In this document: positions 7,832-44,879 of the stretch, piece by piece
Position numbering within the stretch: the stretch's first letter is position 1
How the letters are laid out: each line of letters starts with the position of its first letter
Origin: Dehalococcoidia bacterium
GTDB taxonomy: Bacteria; Chloroflexota; Dehalococcoidia; Lucifugimonadales; UBA1123
Reading direction: 5' to 3'
DNA: 64,000 bases
Assembly: GCA_963665255.1 (NCBI GenBank)
Contig: OY762210.1
Location: forward strand, 130,866-194,865
Made by a program: the position numbers and the translations under genes
Notes under the pieces: model-generated
Told to the model about the DNA's origin: nothing
Databases searched by the model: none
Seen by the model: only the letters and a program-made list of their open reading frames with translations

Positions 7832-8581
7832 TTACTCCCCCCGCAGGCGCCGGAGTTCAGCCTCCAGTTCTTGCACACGAGACTCGGCGGCTTCTGCGCG
7901 GGTGCGTTCCTCTTCTGCACGGGTGCGTTCCTCTTCAGCACGGGTGTGCTCCTCTTCGGCACGTTCCCGCTCCTCTTTTCGCCTGAGTAGCCAGCGTTCT
8001 GCAACTGGGTCCCAGAATCGCAGGTCATCCTCCGACCACCAGATGTCCAGATTCAGAGCCTCGCTATGTGACCACACCCGACCATCGGACTCGTGCCGAA
8101 GCTCGAACCTGTGATACTCGCCGTCCCGAAGGTATTCGCCTACAAGTGGCTCGCCATAGAACTCACCGCCCGTCGCATCGTAGCGCCAGTATTCGGACAC
8201 GCCAAGCTCCGCGTAAAGGTCACGCTTGCGACCCAGATCGACGTTGGCTGTGCTGGGAGAACCTATCTCCAGTACGAAGTCCGGTGCCTTGCCAACTTCC
8301 CATAGCAGGTATGTGTTGTTCCCCTCCAGCGACAGTGAATGCAGCGCTGTCTCCGACAGCCCAAAGACCACGTAGCAGTCGGGAGAGACCAAGCGTCGGG
8401 GATTGCCTTCGACGTAGTAGATGAACGTGTTCCCGTTGACATTTGCGTCCTGAACGTCTCGGAAGTGGTCTTCGAGGTCACCCACTATCCTGCGATAAAG
8501 AGGCGCTTGGTACTCTCCGTCTGGCAATGGCATACCGTCCGATTCAGGATAGACAATGGCAGTGGAGGCTCGGGTGGTCAT
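7832..8581 (-). CDS. Uma2-family (DUF820) endonuclease with C-terminal coiled-coil repeat tail
   Basis: 249 aa. YPESDGMPLPDGEYQ...SPDCYVVFG...PDFVLEIGSPST...KRDLYAELGVSEYWRYD is the PD-(D/E)xK Uma2 pattern. The tail reads RAEEEHTRAEEERTRAEEERTRAE...ELRRLRGE. Confidence 0.85.
   Translation of the reverse strand: MTTRASTAIVYPESDGMPLPDGEYQAPLYRRIVGDLEDHFRDVQDANVNGNTFIYYVEGNPRRLVSPDCYVVFGLSETALHSLSLEGNNTYLLWEVGKAPDFVLEIGSPSTANVDLGRKRDLYAELGVSEYWRYDATGGEFYGEPLVGEYLRDGEYHRFELRHESDGRVWSHSEALNLDIWWSEDDLRFWDPVAERWLLRRKEERERAEEEHTRAEEERTRAEEERTRAEAAESRVQELEAELRRLRGE
7896..7979. repeat. 21-bp tandem repeat, about 4 units, inside the Uma2 gene
   Basis: Units gcgcgggtgcgttcctcttct / gcacgggtgcgttcctcttca / gcacgggtgtgctcctcttcg / gcacgttcccgctcctctttt. 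They encode the (RAEEE[HR]T)n tail. Confidence 0.8.
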
Positions 8582-12982: not shown

Positions 12983-13999
12983 ATGTCACTAAGGCTCACC
13001 AGTTTTCTGAAGGACAAACCAAACACTTCCGAAGTCACTCTGACCATCGACGAATACGAAGAGCGGTTCAGGACGCACAAGCGCGCTGGGATGGGAAGCG
13101 ACTTCAGGAAGTCCAGCGACCTCTACTATGACCTGGTCACTGACTTCTACGAGTACGGATGGGGGCGGTCATTTCACTTTGCCCCGCGCGTTTCTGGAGA
13201 GGGCTTCAAGGCGTCGCTTATTCGTCACGAGCGATTCCTGGCGAGTAAGCTCGGACTCGAACCCGGAATGGTCGTCGCCGATCTGGGTTGCGGGATTGGC
13301 GGGCCGCTGTTGGAGATCGCACGGTTCTCCGGCGCCAGGATCGTCGGCGTAAACAGCAACGCCTATCAGCTCGGGCGCGCCCGGAGATTTGCTGAAGAAG
13401 CGCAGATGACCCACCTGGCCGAGTTCATGCACTCCGACTTCCTGCACGTCGACGCCCCTGACGAGTCGTTCGATGCGGTCTACGCCATCGAGGCAACCTG
13501 CCATGCGCCGGATAAGCTCAGCATCTATGGCGAGGTCTTCCGCCTCCTGAAGCCGGGGGCGAGCTTCGGCAATTACGAATACTGCCTGACCGATCGCTTC
13601 GACCACAAGGACCCCGTCCACCTCAGGATCAAGGCTGATATCGAGCTGGGAGGCGGATTGCTCGAAATCGACGACCGCCAGACGGTTGATGACGCGCTTC
13701 GAACAGTCGGGTTCGATGTGTTGGAAACGCGGGATCTTACGGTGCAGACAGGCCCGTCGGTCCCCTGGTATCAGCCTCTCGTTGGTTCGGGTATCTCTTT
13801 CGCCAGCTTCCGCAGTTCACGTATCGGGCGCTGGGTCACCCACAACACGCTGAGAGTGCTGGAGGCGCTCCACATCGTCCCGCAGGGGTCGGTCCGCGTT
13901 TCGCAGAACCTGAACCTCTGTGCGATGGCCATGGTCGAGGCGGGAAGGCTCGGCATCTTCACGCCGATGTACTTCATCCACGCCCGTAAACCGGAGTAG
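12983..13999 (+). CDS. Sterol C-24 methyltransferase (ERG6/SMT family), paralogue 1
   Basis: 338 aa, collinear end-to-end with yeast Erg6 as I recall it. Region I is YYDLVTDFYEYGWGRSFHFAP, the SAM site is VADLGCGIGGP, region III is VYAIEATCHAP, followed by LKPGASF and the C-terminal GIFTPMYFIHARKPE. Confidence 0.9.
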   Translation: MSLRLTSFLKDKPNTSEVTLTIDEYEERFRTHKRAGMGSDFRKSSDLYYDLVTDFYEYGWGRSFHFAPRVSGEGFKASLIRHERFLASKLGLEPGMVVADLGCGIGGPLLEIARFSGARIVGVNSNAYQLGRARRFAEEAQMTHLAEFMHSDFLHVDAPDESFDAVYAIEATCHAPDKLSIYGEVFRLLKPGASFGNYEYCLTDRFDHKDPVHLRIKADIELGGGLLEIDDRQTVDDALRTVGFDVLETRDLTVQTGPSVPWYQPLVGSGISFASFRSSRIGRWVTHNTLRVLEALHIVPQGSVRVSQNLNLCAMAMVEAGRLGIFTPMYFIHARKPE

Positions 14000-14015
14000 C
14001 GCGGCGGTCCCGACC

Positions 14016-15131
14016 CTAACGACGAGCGGCTGTGGTCTCGAACGGGGCCGTTGAGCCTCGGAAGGTGGACTGCAACGGTGGCGGAGGGAAGCTCTCACCC
14101 TCGCTCAGGTCAGGGTAGAACTGGGCGCAGTAGTACCTGAAGGGCATGATCTTGCCGTCGGAACGGCAGAGACGGGGGCGCGATACGTACTGCTTGCGGC
14201 TCCAGATGACCACGTCCTGCAGGACGTCATCCCTCTGCTGGGCCGCCATGAACCTGTTGATCAAGGGCGCTCGCCAGCTCACAGGGAGCAGTCCCAAACC
14301 TATGATCCTCCGCTTGGGCTTGCGTATCTCCCGTGCCTGCGAGACCAGCGTGAGGTCTATGAGCTTGCCGTCGACAGGCGTCGACAGCACCCACATACGC
14401 ATGTCCATGCCGATCGAGTGCTCGCGGACCTCCACGTACGAGTAGCCCAGCCCATAAACATGGGCGTGCGCAGAGACGTCGAAGGTGAGGCTCGCGAACC
14501 TGGCGATGGTTCGGACCCTCTTGAAGTCGAATTGAGCCTCCAGCAGGTGGCCGTCCACAGACACTTCCTGGACTGGGTTCACGTTGTCGTAGCCATGCAC
14601 GTATCGCAGGTGGGCCATGTCCACCGAGTTCTCGGTCGTCTCCTGAGGGTGGCCCGGAAAGCGGAGGGTGTTGACCTTGAAGTCGCACCATCCGACCTGG
14701 TCAGGCGACTTTTCGGGCAGACGCCACTGCGGCTCCCGTCCGCCTATTCCCCACCAGGCGAAGATCAGCCCGTTGATTTCGTGTGTCTCGAAGACGCGCA
14801 GCTTCGCGGTCCTTGGCGCCTCGGCGTAGGGAGTGGCGACGCACTGGCCGGTCGTGTCGAACTCGTACCCGTGGAATGGGCAGATAAGCAGGCCGTCGCG
14901 TACGCAGCCACCTGCCTCGGGTCCGAGGTCGGAGCCAAGGTGCGGGCAGACCGACTCGGCTACGCAGACATGTCCGTTCCGGTCACACCAGATGACGACG
15001 TTCACGCCCATCCAGGTCTTCTGGACGAGCCCGGACTTCAGTACGGCCTGGCGGGTCGCGATGAAGTACCAACCCTCGGGAAATGGGGAGGGCAACGGAA
15101 CATTAGCGGGCCCACTGCGCTGGGTTACCAT
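14016..15131 (-). CDS. Rieske [2Fe-2S] non-heme iron oxygenase, KshA / cholesterol-7-desaturase (Neverland)-like
   Basis: 371 aa. Rieske motif CPHLGSDL...(17)...CPFHGYEF. Mononuclear iron motif ENSVDMAHLRYVH (DxxHxxxxH). The C-terminal ...DGKIMPFRYYCAQFY resembles the KshA/Neverland-type tail. Confidence 0.85.
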   Translation of the reverse strand: MVTQRSGPANVPLPSPFPEGWYFIATRQAVLKSGLVQKTWMGVNVVIWCDRNGHVCVAESVCPHLGSDLGPEAGGCVRDGLLICPFHGYEFDTTGQCVATPYAEAPRTAKLRVFETHEINGLIFAWWGIGGREPQWRLPEKSPDQVGWCDFKVNTLRFPGHPQETTENSVDMAHLRYVHGYDNVNPVQEVSVDGHLLEAQFDFKRVRTIARFASLTFDVSAHAHVYGLGYSYVEVREHSIGMDMRMWVLSTPVDGKLIDLTLVSQAREIRKPKRRIIGLGLLPVSWRAPLINRFMAAQQRDDVLQDVVIWSRKQYVSRPRLCRSDGKIMPFRYYCAQFYPDLSEGESFPPPPLQSTFRGSTAPFETTAARR

Positions 15132-15184
15132 AGTTCAGCACTCCCTGTGGGTATTTTGGGATTAATCGCAACCATTTAACGCAA

Positions 15185-15214
15185 TTACACTTGTGCCTCA
15201 GTTAGCATTATAAT
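15185..15214 (+). promoter_or_regulatory. Candidate sigma70-type promoter for the P450 gene
   Basis: TTACAC (15185-15190), 18-nt spacer, TATAAT (15209-15214). It lies inside the strikingly AT-rich 184-bp divergent intergenic region, and GAGGGG precedes the ATG at 15316. Confidence 0.4.
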
Positions 15215-15315
15215 AGAAATCGTATCCTTTCCTCGCCCTGCAAACTGTGATTCATGAATATAGGTTAATTTATGTGGTATAGTTATATCATTAACGTCAA
15301 TGAGGGGCAAGGTAA

Positions 15316-17343
15316 ATGACAATCACAAAGGATGCTGTTAAGACGCAGGTGCTAAGCCTGCCTGAAGAACTCATCCTGATGCTTCTAAACGAGGAGAGCG
15401 GCTACTTTTACCAGGTACCCGGATGGGACCTGAACTGTGCCGTGGTCGGCGCCGTTCTCGCGGAACTCTCGATCGAGTCCCGCATCGACACTGACAGGGA
15501 CTCGCTGTTCGTTCTGGACGACACTGAGACGGGCAACTCCACGCTGGACCCCATCCTGAAGGAGATCGCGAGCGAGCCCGCTCAGCGCAACGCCCAGTAC
15601 TGGATCGAACGGCTCTCTCATTATGCGGAGTCGATCATCGATCAGACCCTGGACCGCCTCGTCCGCCTGAATATCCTGGAGTACCACGACGGCGATTTCT
15701 GGACGGTCGCTCCTAACGTGGAACAGACGGTACTGTTCGACGACACGGAGGAAGGGACCGGGATACAGTTCGTCAAGACGCGCATCCGCAACGAGATCTA
15801 CAACAACGAGATCCCCGACCCAAGAGACGTCATCATCATCTGTCTCATCAATACGTGCGACGTCTTTCGCTTCATGTTCAATCTCGATGAGCAGGCTGAG
15901 GAGCGCATCGAGTTCATCTGCAACATGGACCTGATAGGCCGGTCCATTGCCGCCGCGGTCTCCAACAATCTGGCCGGTCCGGTGCTTCGACACTCCCGCC
16001 TAAGCAAGAAGATTCCGACCGTCTCCCTGACGAAGATGGTGTTCAATCGGCATGTTCGCTCGGGAAACGTTCCCGCGCTCTTTGCCGACCTCGCAAAAGA
16101 GTACGGCCCGGTGTTCCAGATCCGGCCTCCGTTTGCCGCGCCCATGATCATGCTGGCCGGGCCTGATACAAACCGCTGGGTGCACCGGCGTGGACGCCTG
16201 CACCTGAGGTCCAGGGACTACTTCGCTGACTTCGAGAAGGTGTATGGCGCGTCCGGAGTATTGCCATCCCTGGATGGCGCCGATCATTTCCGGCTCCGCA
16301 AGTCACTGTCGCCGGCGTACTCTCGCGGAAGACTCATGGGTCAACTGGACCAACTCTACCATCAGACGCGGAAGTATATGGCGGACTGGGAAGTTGGAGA
16401 GTTCTATCCCGCGACGACCCTGTGCCGGCGAATGATTAACGCGCAACTCTCCGCGCTCTTTGTCAGCGTTGAATCTCAGGATATCTTTGATGATCTGACG
16501 TCGTACAAGGAACGGGCGCTCATGACTCACATCATAAAGATACTGCCCAAATTCATGCTTAAGACGCCGGGCATGAGACGCCGCGCGACCACCGTCGATG
16601 AGCTCCTCGAACGGATCCAGAGCGTACATACGCCTGCCCAGCGGGCTGACAGTCCCCGGGATCTTGCCGACGACCTTCTCAGCCTGCACGCGAGCGACCC
16701 CCAGTTTGTACCGGAGTCCAATCTGCGCTTCGCTCTTTCGGCAGCGCTGATTGCCAGTGTGTATCTTGGCGACGCGTTCAGCTTCGCCATGTATGCCATG
16801 GCATCGCAGCCAGAGATCTACGCCAGGATCCAGAGTGAAGCCGACGCGCTGTTCGACAACGGTGATCCGGATGCCATGGACTTCAACCCGGCCTCAATCG
16901 ACGTCACGCACCGCTTCCTCATGGAGTGCCTGCGTATGTACCCGATTGTTCCGATGTCTCTCCGGAACGTGATGAATTCGTGTGTGGTCGAGGGCTTTGA
17001 GTTACCGCTGGGATCACGACTTTACATTGCCCAGACAGCTTCACACTACATGGACGACGTCTTTCCCGACCCCTTCAAATTCGATATCGACCGCTATTTG
17101 CCCCCGCGCAATGAGCACCACAGTCCGGGGTACGCGCCTTACGGGCTGGGCACGCACACGTGTCTTGGCTCCCGGTGGATGGAGCTGCAGTTGGCCGTCA
17201 ATGTGCTAATGGTCGCGCACTACTTCAATATCAAGGTGTTCCCACCGAACTACAACCTGAAGTACAGACCGCTGCCGTCGATGAAGCCGAGCAAGAACCT
17301 GAAGTTCGACATAGTCGAGCAGAGGCGCGAGTTGAACGTCTGA
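15316..17343 (+). CDS. GPP34 (GOLPH3-like) domain fused to a cytochrome P450
   Basis: 675 aa. Residues ~10-230 follow the bacterial GPP34 pattern (LSLPEELILMLLNEESGYF...AVVGAVLAELSIESRI...DPRDVIIICLINTCDVFRFMF). The C-terminal ~440 aa is a P450, with ExxR (ECLRMYP), PFKFDIDRY, and the heme loop YAPYGLGTHTCLGSRWMELQ. Confidence 0.85.
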   Translation: MTITKDAVKTQVLSLPEELILMLLNEESGYFYQVPGWDLNCAVVGAVLAELSIESRIDTDRDSLFVLDDTETGNSTLDPILKEIASEPAQRNAQYWIERLSHYAESIIDQTLDRLVRLNILEYHDGDFWTVAPNVEQTVLFDDTEEGTGIQFVKTRIRNEIYNNEIPDPRDVIIICLINTCDVFRFMFNLDEQAEERIEFICNMDLIGRSIAAAVSNNLAGPVLRHSRLSKKIPTVSLTKMVFNRHVRSGNVPALFADLAKEYGPVFQIRPPFAAPMIMLAGPDTNRWVHRRGRLHLRSRDYFADFEKVYGASGVLPSLDGADHFRLRKSLSPAYSRGRLMGQLDQLYHQTRKYMADWEVGEFYPATTLCRRMINAQLSALFVSVESQDIFDDLTSYKERALMTHIIKILPKFMLKTPGMRRRATTVDELLERIQSVHTPAQRADSPRDLADDLLSLHASDPQFVPESNLRFALSAALIASVYLGDAFSFAMYAMASQPEIYARIQSEADALFDNGDPDAMDFNPASIDVTHRFLMECLRMYPIVPMSLRNVMNSCVVEGFELPLGSRLYIAQTASHYMDDVFPDPFKFDIDRYLPPRNEHHSPGYAPYGLGTHTCLGSRWMELQLAVNVLMVAHYFNIKVFPPNYNLKYRPLPSMKPSKNLKFDIVEQRRELNV

Positions 17344-17383
17344 CGCACCTTGGGATCGCCCGGCAGACTGCGAACGAGAGGAC

Positions 17384-18433
17384 TTAGAGGGGTTTGCGAG
17401 CCAGGAAACAGTACAACGGCGTGAAGATCCCGGTACTGCCGCCTGCGACGTAGGCGTTGGCGGTACCATCCATTAGTCTGATGACGTCCGCGGACCCTTT
17501 CGGGAAAACTCCCAACACCTCGGCCAACCTGGATGCGCCGATGAACAGCTTGCGGCCTAGCGGAACCCTGTACAGGGTGCTGCCCGGCGTTCCTTGCCGG
17601 GTTTCCATGGGCTGATACCACGGCGTGGTCGGACTGCTCTCCTCGACGGCCAGGTCATTCCCCTCGATGACCTGAAATCCCGCCGTTTCGAGGTCCCGGT
17701 TCACCTCACCCATAGTCGCGATCTCCTTGAGCGCGATGCCGTGCATTAGGTCCTGTTTGACGGCCCGGTGCAGATTGTCGTTGGGATCGAACTTGTCCGT
17801 CATGCACATTTCCTGACCCCAGAAAAGGGCTCCGGGTTTCAGAACGCGGTATATCTCGGCGAACGCGCCTGCCTTGTCCGGCGCATGGCATGTCGATTCG
17901 ATCGCGTAGCCTCGGTCGAACGTGTCGTCCGCAATGGCGTCCATGTTCATGAAGCTGCATGCAAGGTAGTCGACCATGTGGTCGATCCCCGCCTCGGCGT
18001 TCAACGATTTGGCCTTGTCCAGTTGGATTTCGCTGCTATTGACCCCTACGACCCTGACGTTAGCTTCCCGGACGACGCGGCGCATTGGGCCGCCGATCCC
18101 GCAGCCCACATCTACCACCGTCATGCCCTCGCTCAACTCAAGCCTGGCGATTATCAGTCGCTGGTGCCGGATCTTGGAGTCCTCCAGACTCTCGCCAGGC
18201 GACAACGGCGCGAAGTGGAGAGACTCGCCCCAGCCGAACACCATGAACTCGCTGCAAAGATCGTAGTACTCCCTGACGGTTTCGGCGTGGTTGTAGCCCG
18301 TTGCGCCGTCATTTTCTGCGGGCGCCCTGTCCATCCATCCATCGAGTCTTCTCACGCGACGGTGGGTGTCCGCCCCACGGTACGCGGCCTTCAGATCCTT
18401 GGATAGCTTGCGGAGTTGCAGGAGACTTTCCAA
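17384..18433 (-). CDS. Sterol C-24 methyltransferase (ERG6/SMT family), paralogue 2
   Basis: 349 aa. Region I is YYDLCSEFMVFGWGESLHFAP, the SAM site is VVDVGCGIGGP, region III is GYAIESTCHAP, followed by LKPGALF and the C-terminal GIFTPLYCFLARKPL. TTG start behind GGAGG. Lies 31 nt downstream of the MMPL gene on the same strand. Confidence 0.9.
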   Translation of the reverse strand: MESLLQLRKLSKDLKAAYRGADTHRRVRRLDGWMDRAPAENDGATGYNHAETVREYYDLCSEFMVFGWGESLHFAPLSPGESLEDSKIRHQRLIIARLELSEGMTVVDVGCGIGGPMRRVVREANVRVVGVNSSEIQLDKAKSLNAEAGIDHMVDYLACSFMNMDAIADDTFDRGYAIESTCHAPDKAGAFAEIYRVLKPGALFWGQEMCMTDKFDPNDNLHRAVKQDLMHGIALKEIATMGEVNRDLETAGFQVIEGNDLAVEESSPTTPWYQPMETRQGTPGSTLYRVPLGRKLFIGASRLAEVLGVFPKGSADVIRLMDGTANAYVAGGSTGIFTPLYCFLARKPL

Positions 18434-18464
18434 AATGCGGTAACCTCCGGTTACTTGGCGGAGC

Positions 18465-20948
18465 CTAGGACGTGCCCTGTCCCTCCTCGTGGCGCCTGAA
18501 CGTGTCCTCGATGGTCACGTCGAGCTCATCCCAGTAGCGTTCCACCATGGAGCGCAGCCGCATGTTCTGGTATGCGCCCCAGACCACCATCGCGGGCAGC
18601 ACCACCAGTGCGGAGACTATCAGCGAGTAGACGATCGTGATGGTCGCTGTGATGCCGAACTGTGCGGACGCCTGGAGCGGCGAGGCTATCAGCACTCCGA
18701 ATCCGAACGCGGTCGTCAGCGCAGATCCCAGCAGAGCGGAGCCCGTCGTCGAGAGCGTCCTGATTGCGGCCTGCTCGGGGTTGCGCAGGTGGGCGAACTC
18801 CTCCCGGTACCGGTGAATCACGTGGATGGTGTAGTCCACTCCTATACCGATAGACAGCGCCGTGATGATCGACGTAACCAGCGTGTAGGGAATGTCCAGC
18901 AGCGCCATCGTGCCAAGTACGCAGATGAGGACTAGCACGATCGGCGCAACCGCGACGATCCCCAGCGCGGGCTGGCGCAGCGTCACCCAGAAGAAGATGC
19001 TGAGTATGCCCAGGGCTGCTGCGACAGTGGTGCCGATCGACGCCGTCTGGCCAGCAGTGATCTGGTCAGTGACCGCGACCGCGACGATGCTCTCCGAGAG
19101 TGCTGTGATAGTGTCGTCTTCGCCGAACCAGAGCGCCTCGATCTCACCCTGGAGATTCCGGGTCTGCTCGGGTTCGTGCGTGTAGGTCGGGAAGTGGAGC
19201 AGCATCGTGTCGACGCCTGCCGGATCGTTGACCAGCAGCCACATCAGCTCGGGCTCTCTCGCGATTAGCTTGTCGACGAACTGCTGCATCAGCACCGGAT
19301 CGAGTTCGACCCCGGGAGAGGCTTCGTCAAAGAGCGCTGCCAGTTCTGGGTCGTACTTGTCGCCGGGCTCGCCGGAGTCGTGTGTCCAGTCTCGGACCAG
19401 CTCTTCATACGAGCCCGTGATCTGTCCACCTGCAGCCTGCGGTCGGCGCTGTTCGTCTTCGAAGCCGGTCGTGAGATCGTGCAGGTTGAGGAGCGTCCGG
19501 CTCGCTGTGATTTCGGCCTGCACCAGTACGGTGGCGACCTCCGTCGAGCCGCCGACCGCTGCCTCGAGGGTGTTCATGTCCTCGATCACGCTCCCACCTC
19601 TGGGCAGGATGTCCTTGATGCTGAACTCGGACTTCAGGTCCCTCGCAGCGAAGCCCATCACGACCGTTATCGCGATGATGACGACCAGGAAGGGCGCCGG
19701 CCAGCGCGTTACCCACACTCCGAGGTGTTCTGCCATCTGGCTGATGCCGGGAAGCGCGTTCGACATCGGGCGGGCCGGCTTCAGAGTGTCGCGCGACTCG
19801 CGCCGCCGGTCGATGATGGTGCGTCCGGCCGGGATCAGCGTCAGCATCACGATCAGGCTCAATCCCACGCCCAGTCCGGCGACGATGCCGAAGTCGCCAA
19901 TCACACCGATGGGCGAGAACAGCGTTGCCAGCAGGCTGACGATGGTCGTGACGGCAGCCAGCATCAGCGGTACTGTGACGTTCCGCAGTCCTGTCCTCAC
20001 CGCCTGCATTACCGGCAGGCCGGCGATTCGCTGTTCACGGTAATGCGAGATCGCCTGGATTGCATAGTCCACCGTCAGGCTGATGATGATCACGGGCACC
20101 ATCGCTGTGAGCGAGCTCGGAGGACCTATCAGGGACAGTCCATTCGGCCCGAGCCAGCCCTCTGCACCAACGACCCACGTAATCGACAGTATTAGGCCCA
20201 GCAGTGTCAGCAGCATATCCGAGAGCGCACGAGTGAACACGAAGAGCAGCACCGCTATCAGCACCAGCGCCAGCCCTATCAGCGGCGCCATTCCGGTCTC
20301 GGTGGCCTCCCTGTACTCGTCCTCGACGATCACCGGCGACAGGCTCCTCACGCTCAGCGGGCCCTCGTCCGCCGCCGCCATCTCATTTATCTTCCGTTCG
20401 GCGTCCCCGGTCCTATCTTCGCCCGTATCGCTCAGGCGTATGTTGGCGACTGCCACCGGCGTGCCGTCGGTGTCGGTGCCGGTCATCGCATCGAGCGCAG
20501 CCCCAATCTCCGGGACGTTGCGCACGGCGTCGATCTCCGCCTGCGATACAGACTCGAGGCTGCCCGTCTGGAGAACGGCGTTCACCACGTACGAAGGCGC
20601 GAAGATCGCGTCGACAGGCACCAGAAGCTGGCCTACGCTAGGATCGCTGATGACCTCATTGATCAGGGAGTCCATCTGTGCGAGGCCACCGGGTGTAAGC
20701 GCATCCCCTCGGAAGATGAGCGTTACGATGCTGACTTCGCTGGACTCTCCGAAGTGCTCATCTATCTCCTGTGTCGCGGTGACGATGGGGTGTCCGGGCG
20801 GGAGGAACGCCACGTCCGCGCCCTCCGTCGGCGGGACGCGCATCGTAGTGCCCATGGCCATCACAACGGTAAGGACGAGGAGAACGCCTATCGTGATCCA
20901 CGGACGGACCGTTACCAGCCAGCTCAACTTGTCGAGTATCTGATTCAT
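18465..20948 (-). CDS. MMPL/RND-superfamily transporter (two MMPL halves, 12 TM)
   Basis: 827 aa. An N-terminal TM is followed by a large periplasmic loop and a 5-TM bundle, and this pattern occurs twice. The motifs ...SLTVDYAIQAISHYREQ... and ...GIGVDYTIHVIHRYREE... are typical MMPL/HpnN-like repeats. Confidence 0.85.
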   Translation of the reverse strand: MNQILDKLSWLVTVRPWITIGVLLVLTVVMAMGTTMRVPPTEGADVAFLPPGHPIVTATQEIDEHFGESSEVSIVTLIFRGDALTPGGLAQMDSLINEVISDPSVGQLLVPVDAIFAPSYVVNAVLQTGSLESVSQAEIDAVRNVPEIGAALDAMTGTDTDGTPVAVANIRLSDTGEDRTGDAERKINEMAAADEGPLSVRSLSPVIVEDEYREATETGMAPLIGLALVLIAVLLFVFTRALSDMLLTLLGLILSITWVVGAEGWLGPNGLSLIGPPSSLTAMVPVIIISLTVDYAIQAISHYREQRIAGLPVMQAVRTGLRNVTVPLMLAAVTTIVSLLATLFSPIGVIGDFGIVAGLGVGLSLIVMLTLIPAGRTIIDRRRESRDTLKPARPMSNALPGISQMAEHLGVWVTRWPAPFLVVIIAITVVMGFAARDLKSEFSIKDILPRGGSVIEDMNTLEAAVGGSTEVATVLVQAEITASRTLLNLHDLTTGFEDEQRRPQAAGGQITGSYEELVRDWTHDSGEPGDKYDPELAALFDEASPGVELDPVLMQQFVDKLIAREPELMWLLVNDPAGVDTMLLHFPTYTHEPEQTRNLQGEIEALWFGEDDTITALSESIVAVAVTDQITAGQTASIGTTVAAALGILSIFFWVTLRQPALGIVAVAPIVLVLICVLGTMALLDIPYTLVTSIITALSIGIGVDYTIHVIHRYREEFAHLRNPEQAAIRTLSTTGSALLGSALTTAFGFGVLIASPLQASAQFGITATITIVYSLIVSALVVLPAMVVWGAYQNMRLRSMVERYWDELDVTIEDTFRRHEEGQGTS

Positions 20949-21770: not shown

Positions 21771-22306
21771 TGCCGTCGTCCTCCCACAACGAGTCCAGTG
21801 CGGCGTGGGAGAAGATGCGGACGGCGTGGACGCGTGTTGACCCTGCCCCGTCAAGGCGCACGTGGTCATTCCAGGCTGTCTCCACAGCAGCCATCTCCAA
21901 CTCCATCGGCTGCATTGTATCCGAATCACTCAGATCGGGTTTTGACTGTCCTCGGAAAATCTGAGATATGATTCGGAGGGCGCTGAATCGTCTCAGCAGA
22001 TTCGATCAAAGGAGGTTGGGGCAACATGGATGCGCTGTATGTGGCGCTGTCGCTCTCGGTGGGACGCAGGCTGTGGAGAGAGGCGGGCGGTAGGCTATAG
22101 CAGGCCGAGTTGCGAGTTTTCCCATTCGGGCTGGTATCTTCATGGACTCGCACGCGCACCGAGCCCAATTCCACAATCGTTTTCACGCGAATTTTCGTAA
22201 AGATCAGTAACGTGCGTGTATAATGTCACACAGTACGAAAACAAAGTAGGGACTGACACAAATGTGTCATGAAATTGGACGTTATGCACCCGGCGAGGAG
22301 GGTAAA

Positions 22307-25039
22307 GTGAGCAAAATTCGCTTGATGACATTACTGGTTTCGGTGGTGCTCGTGGCTCTGTTTGCGGCAGCATGTGCCAGCGAAGAGGCACCCGCGCCCG
22401 CGCCCACCCCGGACTTCTCGGCTCTGATTCAGCAGGCGATGCAGTCGCAGCCATCGGGGGCAACTCCAGATGAGGTCGCTGCCGCAGTGCAGGCCGCGCT
22501 CAGCGCCCAGCCCGGCGTGACCGAGGCCCAGGTGGCCGACTCGATAGCTAAGGCGCTGTCGGACAGGCCCGGCATCACTGAAGCGCAGGTGGCCGATGCG
22601 ATAGCAGGAGCCATTGCCGATCGGCCCGGTGTCACTGAAGACCAGATGGCGGGCGCCATCGCCAACGCGCTCACACAGCAGACCCCAGGTCTGACCGAAG
22701 CCGAGGTAGCCGCAGCGATAACCAGGGCGCTCGAAGACCGCCCCGGTGTCTCTCAGGAAGACATCCAGATGGCTGTCGAAATGGCCGTCGAGCAGGCGAT
22801 GACTCCCGAGCCGTTCAGGATCGGCGTCATGGACTCCCTCACAGGCGTGGGCGAGTCATACGGCAACCCGATCGTCAATGCCAAGCAGCTGGCTGTGAAC
22901 GAGATCAACGCCATGGGCGGCATCAACGGCCGGATGCTCGAACTGATCATCGAAGACTCGAAGTGCAACGCACAGGATGCGATCACCGCCTACAGGAAGC
23001 TGACCGACGTCGACGGCGTGAGGATCATCCTGGGCACGACGTGCAGCGGCGCGATGCTCGGCGCAGCTCCGCTTGCCGAGGAGGACGGGGTAATCCTGCT
23101 CTCGCCATCCGCCACCAACCCGGACATCTCCGTTGCGGGCGACTACATCTTCCGCACGGCAATAAGCGACGCACAGCTTGGAGCCGATGCCGGCAACGCA
23201 ATGTGGGTTGACGGCATCAGAAACCTGGCGACCATCACCGAGACGACCGACTACGCCGAGGGCGTTCGCAGGACCAGCGTTGAGCAGTTCCAGAAGCTCG
23301 GCGGCAAGGTCGTAGGCGAGGAGCGCTACTCATCCGACTCGACGGACTTCAGGACCCAGCTCACCAAGCTCATAGGCCTGGAGCCGGACGGACTGCTTCT
23401 TGCCGCCCAGGGCGAACTGCCGGGTGGAACGATCATCAAGCAGGCGCGCGAGCTGGGCTACGATGGCCCAATCTACACTGAGAGCGTACCCACGGGCGCT
23501 ACCGCGCTCGAAATTGCCGGCGACGCCGCCACAGGCGTGAAGTCCATCATCCCCGCGGATCTCGACCCGAACAACCGCACCGCGCAGGACATGCTGGCCA
23601 ACTTCCGTGAGACTTACGGCTACCTTACCCTCGCCTGGTTCCTCGGGTCGGCCTACGACACGGTGTACGTCGCTGCTGAGTGCCTTGGACGCACCGGAAG
23701 CGACCAAGACTCCAATGGCTTCCGAAACTGCATGAACGACATCTCCCACACCGGCACCATCGGAGTGGACTACAGCTTCGATGCCAATGGCGACGTGGTA
23801 GGTCTGTCCTACGCAGTGGTTGAGATCCTGCCGGTGGCCGAGCGCAATGACGAGAATCTGGGCTACAAGCCCCTCGGTCCTGCCCCAAGCACGTCGATGG
23901 CCATGGCGGCCATGGACGACGGCATGATGATGATGGACGACAAGCCGTTCAGGATCGGCGTAATGGAGTCGGTCACCGGCCCGGGCGAGACCTACGGACG
24001 TGTCGCCGTGCAGGCGAAGCAGATGGCTGTCGATGAGATCAACGCCGCGGGCGGCATCAACGGTCGCATGCTGGAACTGGTCGTCGAGGACGAGAAGTGC
24101 AACGCGCAGGACTCGATCACGGCGTACAGGAAGCTGACCGACGTTGACGGCGTGAAGATCATTCTCGGAACGTCGTGCAGCGGCGCGATGCTCGGAGCAG
24201 CCCCGCTGGCTGAAGCCGACGGAGTCATCATGTTCTCCGGCCTCGCCACCAACCCGGACATTGCCGACGCCGGAGACTACATTTTCCGTACGTCGCTCAA
24301 TGACGCGCAGCTCGGCATAGACACCGGCAACCTGCTCTACGAAGACGGCGTCATGACGCTCGCCACTATCACTGAGGCAACCGACTACGCCGAGGGTGTC
24401 CGCAGGACAACGGTGGAGCAGTTCATGAAAGTAGGCGGGGAGCTAGTTGGCGAGGAGCGATATGCCTCCGACCAGACCGACTTCAGGTCGCAGCTCACCA
24501 AGCTGATAGGAGCCAACCCCGACGCGATACACATCGCCGCACAGTCGGAGTTCACTGGCGGTACTATCATCAAGCAGATCCGAGAGCTTGGATACGAGGG
24601 CGGTCTCTACTCCGAAATCGTTCCGGTCGGTACCACCGCGCTTGAGATCGCCGGAGACGCCGCCACCGGACTGAAGGCGGTAATCACCGACCTCGATCCC
24701 AACAACGAGACGGCGCAGGGTGTGCTCTCGAGGTTCCGAGCACGATACGGATATATAACGCTTCCGTGGTATCTCGGATCCGCGTATGACGACGTGTACA
24801 TCACGGCGGAGTGCCTGAAGCAGACTGGCGACGACCAGAACGCAGACGGCTTCCGCGACTGCATGTACGGCATCACCTGGAGCGGCACGATTGGTGAGAG
24901 CTACAGCTTCGACGAGAGAGGCGAGGTTGTGGGACTGGCGAACGTGGTGGTCGAGGTGCTGCCTCTGGCCGAGCGCACGGACGCCAACCAGGGCTACACG
25001 GTCCTTGGTCCGGCTCCTTCGATGATGATGGGGAACTAA
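22307..25039 (+). CDS. Lipoprotein with two tandem LivJ/type-1 periplasmic binding domains (branched-chain amino acid/amide ABC substrate-binding)
   Basis: GTG at 22307 behind GAGGAGGG. Lipobox LFAAAC. The two homologous halves start FRIGVMDSLTGVGESYG... and FRIGVMESVTGPGETYG..., and both contain GGINGRMLEL..ED.KCNAQD.ITAYRKLTDVDGV.IILGT.CSGAMLGAAPLAE. Confidence 0.85.
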   Translation: MSKIRLMTLLVSVVLVALFAAACASEEAPAPAPTPDFSALIQQAMQSQPSGATPDEVAAAVQAALSAQPGVTEAQVADSIAKALSDRPGITEAQVADAIAGAIADRPGVTEDQMAGAIANALTQQTPGLTEAEVAAAITRALEDRPGVSQEDIQMAVEMAVEQAMTPEPFRIGVMDSLTGVGESYGNPIVNAKQLAVNEINAMGGINGRMLELIIEDSKCNAQDAITAYRKLTDVDGVRIILGTTCSGAMLGAAPLAEEDGVILLSPSATNPDISVAGDYIFRTAISDAQLGADAGNAMWVDGIRNLATITETTDYAEGVRRTSVEQFQKLGGKVVGEERYSSDSTDFRTQLTKLIGLEPDGLLLAAQGELPGGTIIKQARELGYDGPIYTESVPTGATALEIAGDAATGVKSIIPADLDPNNRTAQDMLANFRETYGYLTLAWFLGSAYDTVYVAAECLGRTGSDQDSNGFRNCMNDISHTGTIGVDYSFDANGDVVGLSYAVVEILPVAERNDENLGYKPLGPAPSTSMAMAAMDDGMMMMDDKPFRIGVMESVTGPGETYGRVAVQAKQMAVDEINAAGGINGRMLELVVEDEKCNAQDSITAYRKLTDVDGVKIILGTSCSGAMLGAAPLAEADGVIMFSGLATNPDIADAGDYIFRTSLNDAQLGIDTGNLLYEDGVMTLATITEATDYAEGVRRTTVEQFMKVGGELVGEERYASDQTDFRSQLTKLIGANPDAIHIAAQSEFTGGTIIKQIRELGYEGGLYSEIVPVGTTALEIAGDAATGLKAVITDLDPNNETAQGVLSRFRARYGYITLPWYLGSAYDDVYITAECLKQTGDDQNADGFRDCMYGITWSGTIGESYSFDERGEVVGLANVVVEVLPLAERTDANQGYTVLGPAPSMMMGN
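22454..22798 (+). repeat. Six tandem ~57-bp (19-aa) repeats in the N-terminal linker of the binding protein
   Basis: SGATPDEVAAAVQAALSAQ / PGVTEAQVADSIAKALSDR / PGITEAQVADAIAGAIADR / PGVTEDQMAGAIANALTQQT / PGLTEAEVAAAITRALEDR / PGVSQEDIQMAVEMAVEQA. Confidence 0.85.
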
Positions 25040-29377: not shown

Positions 29378-30178
29378 CTACTCGCCCCGCAGACGCCTCA
29401 GCTCTGCCTCCACCTCAGCCAGCCGCTCCTCGGCAGATTCCCTGGCTTTTCTCTCTGTGTAAGCATTGGCTTCGGCATATTCTCTTGCCGCGCTCTCTTC
29501 GCGAGCGCGCTCTTCGGCGGACTCCCTTGCAGCCTGAACCGCATTGGCATTAGCGAAAACGTCCCAGCTATTCGGAAGCCACTCGCCCTTCGCGGGGTCG
29601 TACACACGCAGGTGTCCATCCTCCCAGCAGATGTCCAACCCCAGGACCTCACTGTGTCCGCGCACCCGGCCTCCAGGTTCTCGCTCCATCTCCACGCGTC
29701 GATACTCGCCGTCCACCAACCGCTCACCAACCAGCGGCTCACGATAGAAGTCGCCACCTGTTGAGTCGAAGCGCCAGTATTCACGAACCCCGATCTCTGC
29801 ATACAACTCCCGCTTGGCTACAAGGTCAGTAGTCGCAGTACTTGGGGAGCCTATCTCAAGCACGAAGTCCGGTGGCTTGCCCACCTCCCAGATACGGTAT
29901 GTATTGAACCTTTCTATAGACTCCATGCTGATGTCGATGGCTACGTAGCAGTCGGGAGACACTAGGCGTCGAGGGTTGCCCTCCTCGTAGTAGATGATCG
30001 TGTTGCCATTGACGTGTGTATTTGGGACGTCATGGTAGTACAGGTCAAAAATGGACAGGACCTCACGGAAGATGGGACCTTGGAACTCTCCGTCGGGCAA
30101 AGGCATACCGTCCGTTTCGGGATAGAAGACCTCGGTGAGATCGCCGGTGGAAGCTGCGTCGACTGGTCTGGTGGTCAT
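29378..30178 (-). CDS. Uma2-family (DUF820) endonuclease, paralogue 2
   Basis: MTTRPVDAAS...FYPETDGMPLPDGEFQ...SPDCYVAI...PDFVLEIGSPST...KRELYAEIGVREYWRFD...ELRRLRGE. ATG at 30178 behind GGAGGGG, matching the N-terminus of the paralogue at 7832-8581. Confidence 0.85.
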   Translation of the reverse strand: MTTRPVDAASTGDLTEVFYPETDGMPLPDGEFQGPIFREVLSIFDLYYHDVPNTHVNGNTIIYYEEGNPRRLVSPDCYVAIDISMESIERFNTYRIWEVGKPPDFVLEIGSPSTATTDLVAKRELYAEIGVREYWRFDSTGGDFYREPLVGERLVDGEYRRVEMEREPGGRVRGHSEVLGLDICWEDGHLRVYDPAKGEWLPNSWDVFANANAVQAARESAEERAREESAAREYAEANAYTERKARESAEERLAEVEAELRRLRGE

Positions 30179-30378
30179 GCTCCCCTCCTGCGCTCGATCA
30201 TAGCACAGCTCGGCGTCATTGCGGGACGGATTACGTCGCATCTATCGTGATATACCGTATAGGTTCATATTATGGTTATCCCTGACCGTGTAACCCTCGA
30301 AAAAGATTCACCCCCGCTACTCCGTGTCACAGCCGCGAATTAGGCTGACATGGACTGACGGGGGTGGTTTACGAACTG

Positions 30379-30668: not shown

Positions 30669-32720
30669 TCACACGCCCAGACGCTGTCTGATCGCAGTCG
30701 TCAACTCAGGCACTATCTCATTCCAGTCGCCGAGTATTCCGAAGTCGGACGCTCGGAATATCTGCGACCTCGCACTGTTGTTGATCGCGACGATCGTCCC
30801 CGACCGCTGTATCCCGACCGTGTGGTTGAACGGCCCGCGCAGCGCGACCGCAACGTACAGCTCCGGCGCGACTGCCTTGCCGGACAGCCCTATCTGGTAC
30901 TGGCGCGGCAGCCATCCGAGGTCGCACACGTCCCGGGTCGTGCCTATGGACGCGCCAAGCGCCGACGCAAGCTCGCGTATCGGCCCGAGGTTCTCAGGCC
31001 CGCCGATGCCCATGCCGACTGACACCACCCTCGCCGCTCGCTCAAGCTCTGCGCCCTCTGCCGACTCGTCCGACACGCTTCTCAGCACCCTGACCCCTGA
31101 CGCCTCGACCGTCCCGACGTCGATCCGGTTGACCACCGGCTCGATCGACTCGTCCGGCTCGCACGCCGTCAGGATGCCGGGTCGCACCGTCGCCATGTTG
31201 GGGAGCGTACGCGACAGGATTGGCGCGACGATGCTTCCCCCGAACGCCGGCTTGAGCTGCGAGAGCCGCCCTTCGTCGTCTATGTCGAGCCCAACGCAGT
31301 CGCCGGTGAGTCCGAGCTCCAGTCTGCCGGCCACCCTCGCTGCCAGGTCGCGCCCGTTGGCAGTGGACGGCACCAGCACTGCGAACGGCGACTGCGCTTT
31401 GATCGCCGCCGTCAACGTCGCAGTGTGAGCCTCGGTGTCGTAGTCTGCAAGTCCTGACCCACCCGCGATGTGCACCGTGTCAGCACCGTACGCAGTCAAC
31501 TGCCGGATGCGTCCATCGTCGTCGTCCCCTATCAGCACGGCCTCGACGTTGGTGCCTATCTGCACCGCAAGCTCTCGCGCCCGTCCGAGAAGCTCCAGCG
31601 TAACGGGCCGCACCTCTCCGCCGATGACCTCCGCGACCACCCAGATCGCCCCCTCCGCTCGCCCTGAGCCTGTCGAAGGGGCCTGTCCTGAGCTTGCCGA
31701 AGGGCCTTGCTCCAGCCTCGGCCCACGGGCCACCCCCGTTCGTCTTGAGCCTGTCGAAGCGGCCTGTCCTGAGCCTGTCGAATGACCTTGCTCCAGCCTC
31801 GGCCCCCTGGCCACTACCGTTCGTCTTGAGCTTGCCGAAGCGGCCTGTCCTGAGCCTGTCGAAGGGCCGAACACCCCCCGCTCTTCGAGGAACTCCATCA
31901 TCTGGGCTACTGCTTCCGCTGGCGGGAGGTCGCGCACGACCGTGCCGAGTCTCGTCGACTCCAGGGAGAATATCTCGTCCACCCATGTCGGAGAGCCGTC
32001 CAGCCCGAACTGCGACATGTCGTCGGTCAGGTCAGCGGCGGTAAGCTGCTCTATCGGCCTGGATGCAGCCTCCGCCATCGCCTCCCGTCTCGGGTAGACC
32101 TCCTCTGCCGCGCCGTCCGTGATGGTCACCAGCGCGGGCATCGGGCACTCAAGCTCCTGGTAGCCCTCGTCAGTCAGCCGTGTGGCCGAAATCGAGCCCG
32201 CCTCAGGGTCCATGTCGAGCTTCGATACCGCCGTGATCTGCGGAACCCCGAGCATCTCGGCGATCTCGGGCCCGACCTGCCCGGTCTCCGCGTCCGTGCT
32301 GTTGCGTCCGCAGATGACGAGGTCCGGCTGCTCACGCTCGAGGGCCAGTGCCAGTGCACGTGACGTCGCCAGCGTGTCCGAGCCGGCGAACGCGCGGTCG
32401 TTGAGGTGTACAGCACGGTCCGCCCCCATAGCCAGCGCCTGCACAAGCGCGTCGGACGCCTGTGGCGGCCCCATCGTGAGCGCAACGACCTCGACCTGTC
32501 CTGAGCCTGTCGAAGCAGCCTGTCCTGAGTTCGTCGAAGTGGCCTGTGCTGAGCCTGCCGAAGCATGCTCCCCCTTGAGTCGCACAGCTAGCGACAGCGA
32601 CAGCACGTCGTATGGGTTGACCTCATTCGGCACACCCTCGCGCACAACACGCCGTGTCTCATTGTCGAACTTGAGCATCGAGACAACAGGCACCTGCTTA
32701 ATGCAAACAGCGATCTTCAT
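30669..32720 (-). CDS. Electron transfer flavoprotein beta-alpha fusion (EtfB-EtfA) joined by repeat-derived linker
   Basis: ATG at 32720 behind GGAGG. N-terminal MKIAVCIKQVPVVSMLKFDNETRRV... is EtfB. After the linker, AIWVVAEVIGGEVRPVTLELLGRARELA...YVAVALRGPFNHTVGIQRSGTIVAINNS is EtfA with its FAD region. There is no stop between the halves. Confidence 0.85.
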   Translation of the reverse strand: MKIAVCIKQVPVVSMLKFDNETRRVVREGVPNEVNPYDVLSLSLAVRLKGEHASAGSAQATSTNSGQAASTGSGQVEVVALTMGPPQASDALVQALAMGADRAVHLNDRAFAGSDTLATSRALALALEREQPDLVICGRNSTDAETGQVGPEIAEMLGVPQITAVSKLDMDPEAGSISATRLTDEGYQELECPMPALVTITDGAAEEVYPRREAMAEAASRPIEQLTAADLTDDMSQFGLDGSPTWVDEIFSLESTRLGTVVRDLPPAEAVAQMMEFLEERGVFGPSTGSGQAASASSRRTVVARGPRLEQGHSTGSGQAASTGSRRTGVARGPRLEQGPSASSGQAPSTGSGRAEGAIWVVAEVIGGEVRPVTLELLGRARELAVQIGTNVEAVLIGDDDDGRIRQLTAYGADTVHIAGGSGLADYDTEAHTATLTAAIKAQSPFAVLVPSTANGRDLAARVAGRLELGLTGDCVGLDIDDEGRLSQLKPAFGGSIVAPILSRTLPNMATVRPGILTACEPDESIEPVVNRIDVGTVEASGVRVLRSVSDESAEGAELERAARVVSVGMGIGGPENLGPIRELASALGASIGTTRDVCDLGWLPRQYQIGLSGKAVAPELYVAVALRGPFNHTVGIQRSGTIVAINNSARSQIFRASDFGILGDWNEIVPELTTAIRQRLGV
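31663..31868. repeat. 81-bp tandem repeat, about 2.5 units, forming the EtfB-EtfA linker
   Basis: Units start at 31663, 31744 and 31825. Each is built from CCTGAGCCTGTCGAAGG-type motifs. At 27 codons per unit they stay in frame and encode (G)PSTGSGQAAS..SRRT.VARGPRLEQG. Confidence 0.85.
32495..32566. repeat. 24-bp tandem repeat x3 inside the EtfB half
   Basis: cctgtcctgagcctgtcgaagcag / cctgtcctgagttcgtcgaagtgg / cctgtgctgagcctgccgaagcat. Encodes SAGSAQATSTNSGQAASTGSGQ inserted in EtfB. Confidence 0.8.
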
Positions 32721-44801: not shown

Positions 44802-44879
44802 GGTGTGAGGTTACAACCTCCGGGTTTCCAGTTACAACGACATGGGACGGCCCAGAGTTGGCTGCCGCCTAAGTCGGAG

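Follow-up and report, generated by a model that had tools for sequence, protein, structure and literature searches.

Gene content and integrity of the locus

We analyzed a 64-kb stretch of the contig OY762210.1 from a Dehalococcoidia bacterium (hereafter the window, whose positions give all coordinates except where another locus is named), which holds a cluster of five genes encoding two sterol methyltransferases (SMTs), two oxygenases, and a transporter of the RND superfamily. A preliminary description of this DNA, made from its letters alone, had placed the five genes in the order SMT1> <Rieske P450> <SMT2 <MMPL, and our check of the open reading frames (ORFs) recovered the same order and exactly the same coordinates. 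The first gene (12983-13999, forward strand, 338 aa) encodes a canonical ERG6-type SMT, which we call SMT-A. It converges, with a gap of 16 bp, on the gene of a KshA-type Rieske non-heme-iron oxygenase (14016-15131, reverse strand, 371 aa). The latter diverges across 184 bp (15132-15315, from the gene coordinates) from the gene of a GPP34-P450 fusion of the kind named GPP34_L (15316-17343, forward strand, 675 aa), which in turn converges, with a gap of 40 bp, on the gene of a divergent SMT paralog, SMT-B (17384-18433, reverse strand, 349 aa). The gene of an MMPL/HAE3-type RND transporter with a sterol-sensing-like domain (18465-20948, reverse strand, 827 aa) precedes SMT-B on the same strand, with a gap of 31 bp, and the two are probably a single operon. 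The spacing of the genes suggests at least four transcription units, and the 184-bp spacer presumably holds divergent promoters; a scan for consensus (sigma-70) promoters and terminators gave no signal above chance.

The window sits on a contig of 3.70 Mb, named ctg36565c in the ENA assembly ERZ25084387, where, judging from the naming, the suffix "c" probably stands for circular. The nearest GTDB species representative, a Dehalococcoidia chromosome of 3.39 Mb (OZ247432.1), has all five genes in an identical order. It also shares the flanks, with TrkH, Uma2, CMD, GFO/IDH, and acyl-CoA dehydrogenase on one side and a branched-chain-type binding protein on the other. As the GC content is even across the window and the cluster with both its flanks is syntenic with an independent chromosome, a chimeric assembly, which the preliminary description had listed among the things that could undo its reading, is ruled out. 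Two genes of Uma2-family putative endonucleases flank the cluster region, at 7832-8581 and 29378-30241.

The same description had noted the lack of a cyclase and an epoxidase. We found neither in the 64 kb, nor did we find CYP51, ERG24, or SdmA/B, using Pfam on about 35 of the largest ORFs and tblastn with proteins of bacterial sterol clusters (fusions of squalene monooxygenase and oxidosqualene cyclase, SMO-OSC; CYP51; ERG24; SdmA/B-like, ERG4/24-like, and amine-oxidase-like proteins). In other words, the window does not hold a de novo sterol-synthesis cluster, with OSC, squalene monooxygenase, CYP51, and ERG24 in one locus. What it does hold, according to the Pfam domains detailed below, is a sterol-type tailoring cluster with an RND transporter in a bacterium, as had been proposed.

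Both methyltransferases belong to the ERG6/SMT superfamily, in agreement with the preliminary description, since each carries the family-specific domain Sterol_MT_C (PF08498), with 85.7 bits in SMT-A and 52.4 bits in SMT-B for a cut-off of 21.7; both also have a class I methyltransferase domain, which in SMT-A matches Methyltransf_11 with 61 bits. The motifs that had been quoted for them were all located: Region I (YEYGWGRSFHFAP and MVFGWGESLHFAP), the S-adenosylmethionine (SAM) site GCGIGGP, which is found in SMT-A and SMT-B alike, YAIEATCHAP and YAIESTCHAP, and both C-termini. The yeast ERG6 sequence used in what follows was accepted after 28 of the 28 numbered positions of a 2025 preprint (Brown & Welander) matched. 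As a cross-check, its identity to two enzymes from the sponge Aplysina aerophoba was 40.4% and 35.4%, for published values of 42.4% and 35.2%.

SMT-A has its Region I at 13148-13186, its SAM motif at 13280-13306, and the motif ELGGGL, whose second Gly corresponds to yeast position 249, at 13643-13660. It is 40.9% identical to ERG6 and 47% to Ap_sym_SMT, the propylating enzyme "1 of 2" of A. aerophoba. A set of 25 residues is common to all functional SMTs, including 84GWGxxFHF91, 125DxGxGxxGP133, E195, and G217 (Brown & Welander 2025 preprint), and SMT-A keeps 25 of these 25, as does its family. At ERG6 positions 81, 83, and 249 it has Tyr, Tyr, and Gly. According to the same preprint, Gly249 is necessary for a third methylation and all four known propylating enzymes carry Phe at position 81 and/or 83; SMT-A thus has the Gly but not the full propylating signature, with Tyr at both Region I positions. 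Since the 25 residues are kept, Gly249 is present, and the Region I Phe is missing, SMT-A is predicted to be an active C-24 methyltransferase on delta-24 sterols, adding one or two carbons; the nearest assayed relative that we identified is only 47% identical to it. The gene has a dN/dS of 0.25 relative to its ortholog in the locus L091. We found 3641 homologs of SMT-A at E<=1e-20, at least 120 of them above 70% identity. Two members of the family (L171 and L172) are solitary genes whose context is uninformative.

SMT-B is more distant, with 33% identity to ERG6 over the full length and 39% to SMT-A. Its Region I (MVFGWGESLHFAP) lies at 18206-18244, the motif LFWGQEMC, with the change Y223Q, at 17804-17827, and the motif MHGIAL, where Ile stands at position 249, at 17729-17746. 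We identified 2682 homologs at E<=1e-20. Among 119 sampled members of the SMT-B family the mean pairwise identity is about 80%, for about 39% to the SMT-A family, and 38 positions separate the two families, being at least 90% conserved within each and different between them (121 SMT-A-family and 119 SMT-B-family sequences). The SMT-B family retains the SAM-binding motif, H90, E195, and W286. F89L, Y223Q, and 249I are invariant in it, Y81M is near-invariant, and several further aromatic residues are replaced by aliphatic ones. Of the 25 residues common to functional SMTs, SMT-B departs from T78 (T78S), F89 (F89L), and L341 (L341M); in its family F89L is found in 119 of 119 sequences, and at position 78 Ser is found in 76 of them and Gly in 32. 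A docking model places the sterol side chain between residues 81 and 249 (2025 preprint). A search of the PDB gave no genuine SMT structure, and one candidate, 6f5z, was rejected as a small unrelated methyltransferase. The dN/dS of SMT-B relative to its orthologs is 0.14-0.25, which indicates a functional gene and not a decaying copy.

A close relative of SMT-B has been assayed. In a scan of metagenomes, an A. aerophoba contig (L022; another one, L020, is identical over the cluster) was found to encode both SMT types, in the order ERG24, CYP51, SMO-OSC fusion, SMT, one gene, second SMT, GPP34-P450. The first of these SMTs starts with MNPTPAKQSNSRSLADLAPDEVKSTVDGYT, the 30 N-terminal residues of the published enzyme "A. 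aerophoba JGIcombinedJ30088_10000835 1 of 2". We tied this contig to the published enzymes by N-terminal identity, by gene order (Supplementary Data 1, Brown et al.), and by the identities to ERG6. Enzyme "1 of 2" is the propylating one (PMC10070321; 2025 preprint). As the first SMT of the contig is identical in its start to "1 of 2" and the gene order matches, the second SMT corresponds to "2 of 2". SMT-B is 72% identical to this protein over the full length and shares with it T78S, Y81M, F89L, and I249. Judged by the row labels and grouping of an alignment figure in the 2025 preprint, "2 of 2" belongs to the "No activity" group, for which the substrates were desmosterol and 24-methylenecholesterol. 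The same group contains the enzyme "2 of 2" encoded by a metagenome-assembled genome of Chromatiales associated with Theonella.

The Rieske protein matches the Pfam domains Rieske and KshA_C (93 bits) and has an intact cluster and intact iron ligands, with CPHLG at 14934-14948, CPFHG at 14868-14882, and the D-x2-H-x4-H iron motif (DMAHLRYVH) at 14595-14621. Its best solved relatives are the KshA steroid 9-alpha-hydroxylases (E of about 6e-25). KshA_C is also part of Neverland and DAF-36, C-7 desaturases of sterols that may be equally plausible models for this protein. An identity as SdmA was rejected, because the NCBIfam score is 30.6 bits for a cut-off of 600 and covers the Rieske domain only. 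Indeed, the SdmA-like gene of a Binatia locus (L164) carries Rieske and VanA_C, not KshA_C, and coexists there with the Rieske gene of the type found in the window. A screen of about 35 of the window's largest ORFs, which covered ferredoxins of 120 aa or more, gave no KshB-type reductase, and none was seen as a recurrent neighbor in other genomes. A dN/dS of 1.2 relative to the ortholog in L101 was discarded as an artifact of a partial alignment.

The GPP34-P450 fusion combines GPP34 (PF05719, 101 bits; aa 15-215, 15358-15960) and p450 (PF00067, 118 bits; aa 249-643, 16060-17244) in one polypeptide, which makes it a GPP34_L protein, and about 45 full-length representatives match it across both domains. 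Its nearest solved relatives include CYP51/CYP46-like P450s. The P450 domain keeps the EXXR motif (16924-16935) and the Cys-ligand loop (17140-17169). In its I-helix (LIAS-VYLGD, 16747-16773, aa 478-486) one residue is deleted, giving AS-VY, and the acid-alcohol pair of the pattern (A/G)G-x-(D/E)-T is missing; the window fusion is thus not a canonical O2-activating P450. This state of the I-helix is limited to the subclade of the window protein, most other fusions having AG(L/I)(D/E)T. P450s that lack the pair are often isomerases, peroxide-using enzymes, or substrate-assisted oxygenases. We saw no signal peptide by eye. In the GPP34 domain, we considered the residues that we take to line the phosphatidylinositol 4-phosphate (PI4P) pocket of human GOLPH3, i.e., W81, R90, R171, and R174. 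In an alignment that is weak (E = 0.04), W81 is kept in the GPP34 orthologs and Arg90 aligns to Val, Ala, or Ile in 58 orthologs and 44 diverse fusions, the window protein having Val (15415-15468, aa 34-51); R171 and R174 were not mapped.

The transporter matches MMPL with 141 bits, Sterol-sensing with 34 bits, Patched with 31 bits, and the HAE3 model TIGR00921 with 213 bits. It is far below the equivalog cut-offs of HpnN (106 for 752 and 70 for 1100) and BstA (32 for 1400), and its nearest PDB entries are MmpL4/5, the sterol-sensing domain of PTCH1, and HpnN. Its dN/dS is 0.09-0.15. A second MMPL-family transporter of 741 aa (55254-57479, 286 bits), with no match to the sterol-sensing domain, is positionally unrelated to the cluster and lies near a HATPase_c_2 gene and gyrA (58751-61276).

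A conserved, horizontally transferred module

To place the cluster among other genomes, we used the best 80 of at least 578 GTDB stretches that encode a relative of SMT-B, all at least 75% identical to it and each from a different species. The species are mostly Dehalococcoidia and other Chloroflexota, including SAR202, and also comprise Alphaproteobacteria, Acidimicrobiales, Thermodesulfobacteriota, Dadabacteria, and Binatia. The preliminary description had called bacterial SMTs rare. This view does not hold, given the thousands of homologs of both types counted above and the wide occurrence of SMT-B, which is encoded with an identity of 75% or above by at least 80 GTDB species from six or more named groups.

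Within 6 kb of SMT-B, we found a GPP34-P450 in 59 of the 80 species, a KshA-type Rieske gene in 58, an RND pump in 60, and all three partners in 49. The dominant arrangements are MMPL>SMT-B> <P450 Rieske> and Rieske>MMPL>SMT-B> <P450, and the GPP34-P450 is the commonest immediate neighbor of SMT-B. An unbiased clustering of the neighboring ORFs revealed no other family as frequent as these three. The pump varies in kind, as its place next to SMT-B is taken in other genomes by pumps of the AcrB type or by a second type of MMPL protein that has a sterol-sensing domain. Among the loci L070 and L075 (1703-6030), L143 (11085-15900), and L044, some have a tandem pair of GPP34-P450 paralogs by the module, and others have more distant GPP34-P450 copies (40-48% identity) a few kb from SMT-B.

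A second, independent sample was drawn from JGI/GenBank metagenomes, with 28 SMT-B loci having at least 5 kb on both sides. There, the GPP34-P450 was found within 5 kb in 13-15 of the 28 loci, in 12 of them directly adjacent, the Rieske gene in 8-11, an RND pump of some subfamily in 13, and at least one partner in 19. The SMT-B relatives of this sample (56-80% identity) come from contigs with the prefixes LXNI, LXNJ, MKWU, Ga02090xx/95xx/97xx, and JGIcombinedJ30088, and several of these contig sets are Sarcotragus, Petrosia, and Aplysina sponge metagenomes (Brown et al., PMC10070321).

SMT-A behaves differently from the other four genes. All five recur in the locus L089, which is syntenic with the window and has a Uma2 gene at the matching upstream position, and in L090, a contig of 3.92 Mb, where they are arranged as Rieske>MMPL>SMT-A>SMT-B> <P450 in an unrelated genomic context. 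Yet, an SMT-A-like gene is found near SMT-B in only 4 of the 80 GTDB species. SMT-A is therefore a lineage-specific addition that joined the conserved module within this lineage. A gene for an FAD amine-oxidase-like protein (PF01593) is found within 10 kb of SMT-B in 42 of the 80 species, often after the Rieske gene (e.g., L095, 14370-15755; L107, 14438-15796; L132, 14278-15633; L164, 5098-6495; L002, 9196-10623), and tblastn revealed no copy of it anywhere in the 64-kb window. In this lineage, SMT-A occupies that position.

The module has moved between phyla. The dS of SMT-B between this Dehalococcoidia copy and those of Alphaproteobacteria and Binatia is about 0.65-0.72, far from saturation, which indicates recent transfer between phyla. 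For comparison, the SMO-OSC fusion of the A. aerophoba contig (L022, 2438-6100) is at least 78% identical across the best 120 of 1587 matches (clusters at 90% identity), and its named carriers include Nitrospira, Gamma- and Alphaproteobacteria, Acidimicrobiia, and a Binatia chromosome. Together, the identity of SMO-OSC and the dS of SMT-B indicate a recent horizontal spread of sterol genes among sponge symbionts. Hence, SMT-B, the GPP34-P450, the Rieske oxygenase, and the RND pump form a conserved, horizontally transferred module.

In some genomes, this module is embedded in sterol biosynthesis. In the A. aerophoba symbiont (L020/L022), which appears to be Nitrospira-like as judged by its OSC, SMT-B and the GPP34-P450 lie within a complete SMO-OSC/CYP51/ERG24 cluster. 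In a Binatia chromosome (OZ242288.1; L164, 1938-20944), a complete sterol cluster holds the embedded module, in the order KshA-type Rieske, GPP34-P450, amine-oxidase-like, SdmB-like, SdmA-like, then an SMT 80% identical to the propylating enzyme, SMT-B, another P450, SMO-OSC, CYP51, and ERG24. Reductases of the ERG4/ERG24 family (PF01222, 117-141 bits), often in tandem, adjoin the module in 7-8 of the 80 species, in Chloroflexota and Dadabacteria (e.g., L095, 17487-18626 and 18751-19890; L147, 4662-5801), and in Dadabacteria it is also adjoined by FA_hydroxylase and 3-beta-HSD genes. The position of the module inside sterol clusters in two lineages, and the reductases, FA_hydroxylase, and 3-beta-HSD alongside it, point to a sterol-type substrate. 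An OSC was found near SMT-B in just 1 of the 80 species. Sponge-associated Dehalococcoidia with ERG24-CYP51-LSS clusters have been reported (PMC9531527), and an OSC of the genome studied here was not recognized among the best 120 of 1587 matches to the OSC domain of L022 in a search of 5.8 billion proteins, these 120 being SMO-OSC fusions of other phyla. The ten largest OSC clusters gave only the Binatia chromosome.

Proposed function and rival explanations

We consider it fairly probable that the cluster has two layers. In the first, SMT-A would act as a conventional sterol C-24 methyltransferase. In the second, the module of SMT-B, GPP34-P450, Rieske oxygenase, and RND pump would remodel and methylate a sterol or a very close triterpenoid. 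The P450 and the Rieske oxygenase would modify the substrate, joined in many other genomes by the FAD amine-oxidase-like enzyme. SMT-B would then transfer a methyl from SAM to an olefin that neither desmosterol nor 24-methylenecholesterol offers, and the pump would remove the product from the cytoplasmic membrane. Most likely, GPP34 would be a docking domain that brings the P450 to the membrane or to the lipid on which it acts. Rare GPP34-Rieske fusions have been reported (PMC11706023); GPP34 can therefore be attached to either type of oxygenase of the module, which fits a role in docking or in presenting the substrate. Gene content, families, motifs, neighborhoods, purifying selection, transfer between phyla, and the tie to an inactive tested homolog are observed here, whereas the substrate, the sequence of reactions, export, and the task of GPP34 are inferred from them.

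A more specific version of this proposal is conceivable, although we hold it to be unlikely. SMT-B could be an unconventional side-chain methylase that works at C-26 of a delta-25 sterol such as codisterol, or forms a cyclopropane, and accepts only intermediates made by its neighbors, i.e., the GPP34-P450, the Rieske oxygenase, and, in other genomes, the FAD enzyme. GPP34_L would then serve the symbiosis by helping to make and export a modified sterol and not as a PI4P-binding effector. If so, some of the unusual sterols of sponges, among them precursors of biomarkers of the 26-methylstigmastane type, could stem from symbiotic bacteria.

Several observations weigh against the two-layer proposal. 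The inactivity of "2 of 2" may reflect poor expression in E. coli lysate and not its choice of substrate. No partner lies within 6 kb of SMT-B in 14 of the 80 species, so the coupling is not obligatory. The sterol supply is hypothetical, as no cyclase of this genome was recognized in the searches given above; the sterol may come from the host, or the core pathway may be encoded elsewhere, a sensible pair of alternatives from the preliminary description. The substrate may also be a non-sterol isoprenoid, and the pointer to export is the family membership of the pump. As the O2-activating acid-alcohol pair is missing, the chemistry of the P450 may be non-canonical and something other than hydroxylation. 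Finally, in the cluster we found neither a ferredoxin nor a reductase as a redox partner of the Rieske protein or of the P450.

We weighed four rival explanations, which we rank, in order of decreasing confidence, as a division of labor between the SMTs, a non-sterol isoprenoid substrate, a secreted effector, and sterol catabolism. The first was part of the preliminary description, in which the two SMTs share successive C-24 methylations as plant SMT1 and SMT2 do, and the oxygenases and the pump would be general helpers in tailoring and trafficking. Both proteins are of the ERG6 family with Sterol_MT_C, they are clearly diverged, above all in Region I, and in L090 their genes are adjacent and co-directional. 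Still, we think this rather improbable. Bacterial SMTs have been assayed since 2023, and a single such enzyme can perform from one to three methylations in succession (PMC10070321), which does away with the need for a second copy. An SMT-A-like gene accompanies SMT-B in very few species (the 4 of 80 given above). SMT-B deviates at residues conserved in every functional SMT (T78S, F89L, L341M), as well as by Y81M and I249, and its 72%-identical relative "2 of 2" falls in the "No activity" group. The preliminary description had itself taken a lack of activity on delta-24 sterols as grounds for giving up its reading, and by this standard, applied through the tested homolog, SMT-B is not established as a C-24 SMT and the plant-like scheme is unsupported.

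It is also doubtful, in our view, that the substrate of SMT-B is an isoprenoid other than a sterol, be it squalene, a hopanoid, or some further polyprenoid, an idea that comes from analogy. SMT-like triterpene methyltransferases of Botryococcus braunii reportedly act on squalene and botryococcene. The undemonstrated cyclase, the inactivity of the tested homolog on sterols, and the replacement of sterol-pocket aromatics by aliphatic residues in the SMT-B family would all fit such a substrate, and so would the amine-oxidase-like flavoprotein that accompanies the module in 42 of the 80 species, as its Pfam family includes HpnE, an enzyme of the squalene pathway. However, in two lineages the module is part of OSC/CYP51/ERG24 clusters and in others it has ERG4/ERG24 reductases for neighbors, its Rieske protein is of the steroid KshA type, and its pump has a sterol-sensing-like domain.

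The third explanation comes from the study (PMC11706023) that reported GPP34_L from sponge symbionts only, with expression in A. aerophoba. In it, the GPP34-P450 would be a secreted effector that binds PI4P, as eukaryotic GOLPH3 does, and blocks phagosome maturation in sponge cells, and the neighboring genes would be incidental or have another role in host manipulation. We find this quite improbable for the protein of the window. In 49-59 of the 80 species, GPP34_L shows synteny with the SAM-dependent methyltransferase, the Rieske oxygenase, and the RND pump, and two lineages have it within clusters for sterol synthesis. We saw no signal peptide in it by eye, a heme enzyme would be an odd cargo for secretion, and Arg90, to which we assume a role in binding PI4P, is replaced by Ala, Val, or Ile throughout the family, as far as the weak alignment tells. 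The study analyzed the flanking genes of the short form only, and its text does not mention sterols.

Least of all do we expect a cluster with which host sterols are taken up and degraded, where the KshA-like oxygenase, the P450, and the RND protein would import and open steroids in the manner of actinobacterial catabolism. In its favor, no solved protein is closer to the Rieske protein than KshA, and 9-11 kb upstream there are genes of an acyl-CoA dehydrogenase and of a GFO/IDH oxidoreductase. Still, this is very improbable, as methyltransferases are anabolic, no other steroid-catabolic family appeared in the Pfam scans (about 35 of the largest ORFs of the window) or in the clustering of recurrent neighbors, the upstream dehydrogenases are syntenic only within this lineage and missing from L090, and the module travels with biosynthetic genes in other genomes.

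The remaining genes of the window showed a few other features. A protein of 925 aa (22262-25039) has two tandem periplasmic-binding modules (Peripla_BP_6/ANF_receptor), and at its start a motif of about 17 residues (PGVTEAQVADxIAxAL) is repeated several times; its gene is followed by genes of a branched-chain-type ABC transporter, up to about 29367. Further on, a protein of 760 aa with two ETF domains and an ETF_alpha FAD-binding domain (30669-32951) looks like an ETF beta-alpha fusion, and an ORF of 1003 aa (35692-38703) has no Pfam match. Three paralogous genes of M28 peptidases, two with PA domains, are found at 43356-49291, around a gene for a SOUL heme-binding protein (45098-45802).

Comparison with known systems

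The accessory proteins resemble known ones only in part. The Rieske protein has the Rieske cluster, the KshA_C domain, and the iron ligands in common with KshA, but the match to the solved structure spans residues 13-181 only, we found neither a KshB-type reductase nor a catabolic gene nearby (about 35 of the largest ORFs), and its surroundings are anabolic. SdmA, too, is a Rieske oxygenase that occurs in bacterial sterol clusters; the SdmA-like genes have VanA_C, whereas the window protein has KshA_C. The pump shares the RND/MMPL architecture, the sterol-sensing-like domain, and the clustering with genes of lipid biosynthesis with HpnN, BstA, and mycobacterial MmpL, although it differs from the former two by scores far below their equivalog cut-offs, and other RND subfamilies replace it elsewhere. 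Plants, like this bacterium, have two diverged SMT paralogs in one organism, but we see no sign of a second C-24 methylation by SMT-B, whose nearest tested relative did not accept 24-methylenecholesterol.

Two systems are closer. The first comprises the SMTs of sponge symbionts (PMC10070321; 2025 preprint), where the A. aerophoba contig has the same two SMT types together, "1 of 2" agreeing with SMT-A in the conserved residues, and a GPP34-P450 directly beside "2 of 2". That cluster carries in addition an SMO-OSC fusion, CYP51, ERG24, and sdmAB, none of which is in the window. The main text of these papers does not discuss the GPP34-P450, Rieske, and RND neighbors or the role of the inactive paralog. 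The second is GPP34_L (Microbiome 2025, PMC11706023), with 656 proteins found only in sponge symbionts, including about 80% of the sponge-associated Dehalococcoidia. The proteins of that study have the same domain architecture and the same host range as the window fusion, and were proposed to be secreted PI4P-binding effectors that block phagosome maturation; sterols and methyltransferases are not mentioned in its main text. Here, the fusion is tied to SMT-B, to a KshA-type Rieske oxygenase, and to an RND pump, and the subclade of the window lacks the acid-alcohol pair of the I-helix. In the library of papers searched, we found none linking GPP34 with sterols in sponge symbionts. Hence, the linkage of an "inactive" SMT paralog and GPP34_L in one mobile module appears to be undescribed, each part being of a known kind and the window one of many instances.

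This bears on several questions. Active SMTs of sponge symbionts complicate the use of 24-alkyl steranes as animal biomarkers, and the enzymes behind C-26 and other unusual alkylations of sponge sterols are not yet assigned to host or symbiont (PMC12541326, 2025), so that the module bears on where these alkylations are made. The comparison also gives a testable hypothesis, in which the SMT would need a substrate made by its neighbors and the "symbiosis factor" would belong to the pathway of a sterol-type lipid. In this locus two literatures meet, since the inactive SMT type of geobiology and the GPP34-P450 that serves as a marker of symbiosis are usually the products of adjacent genes.

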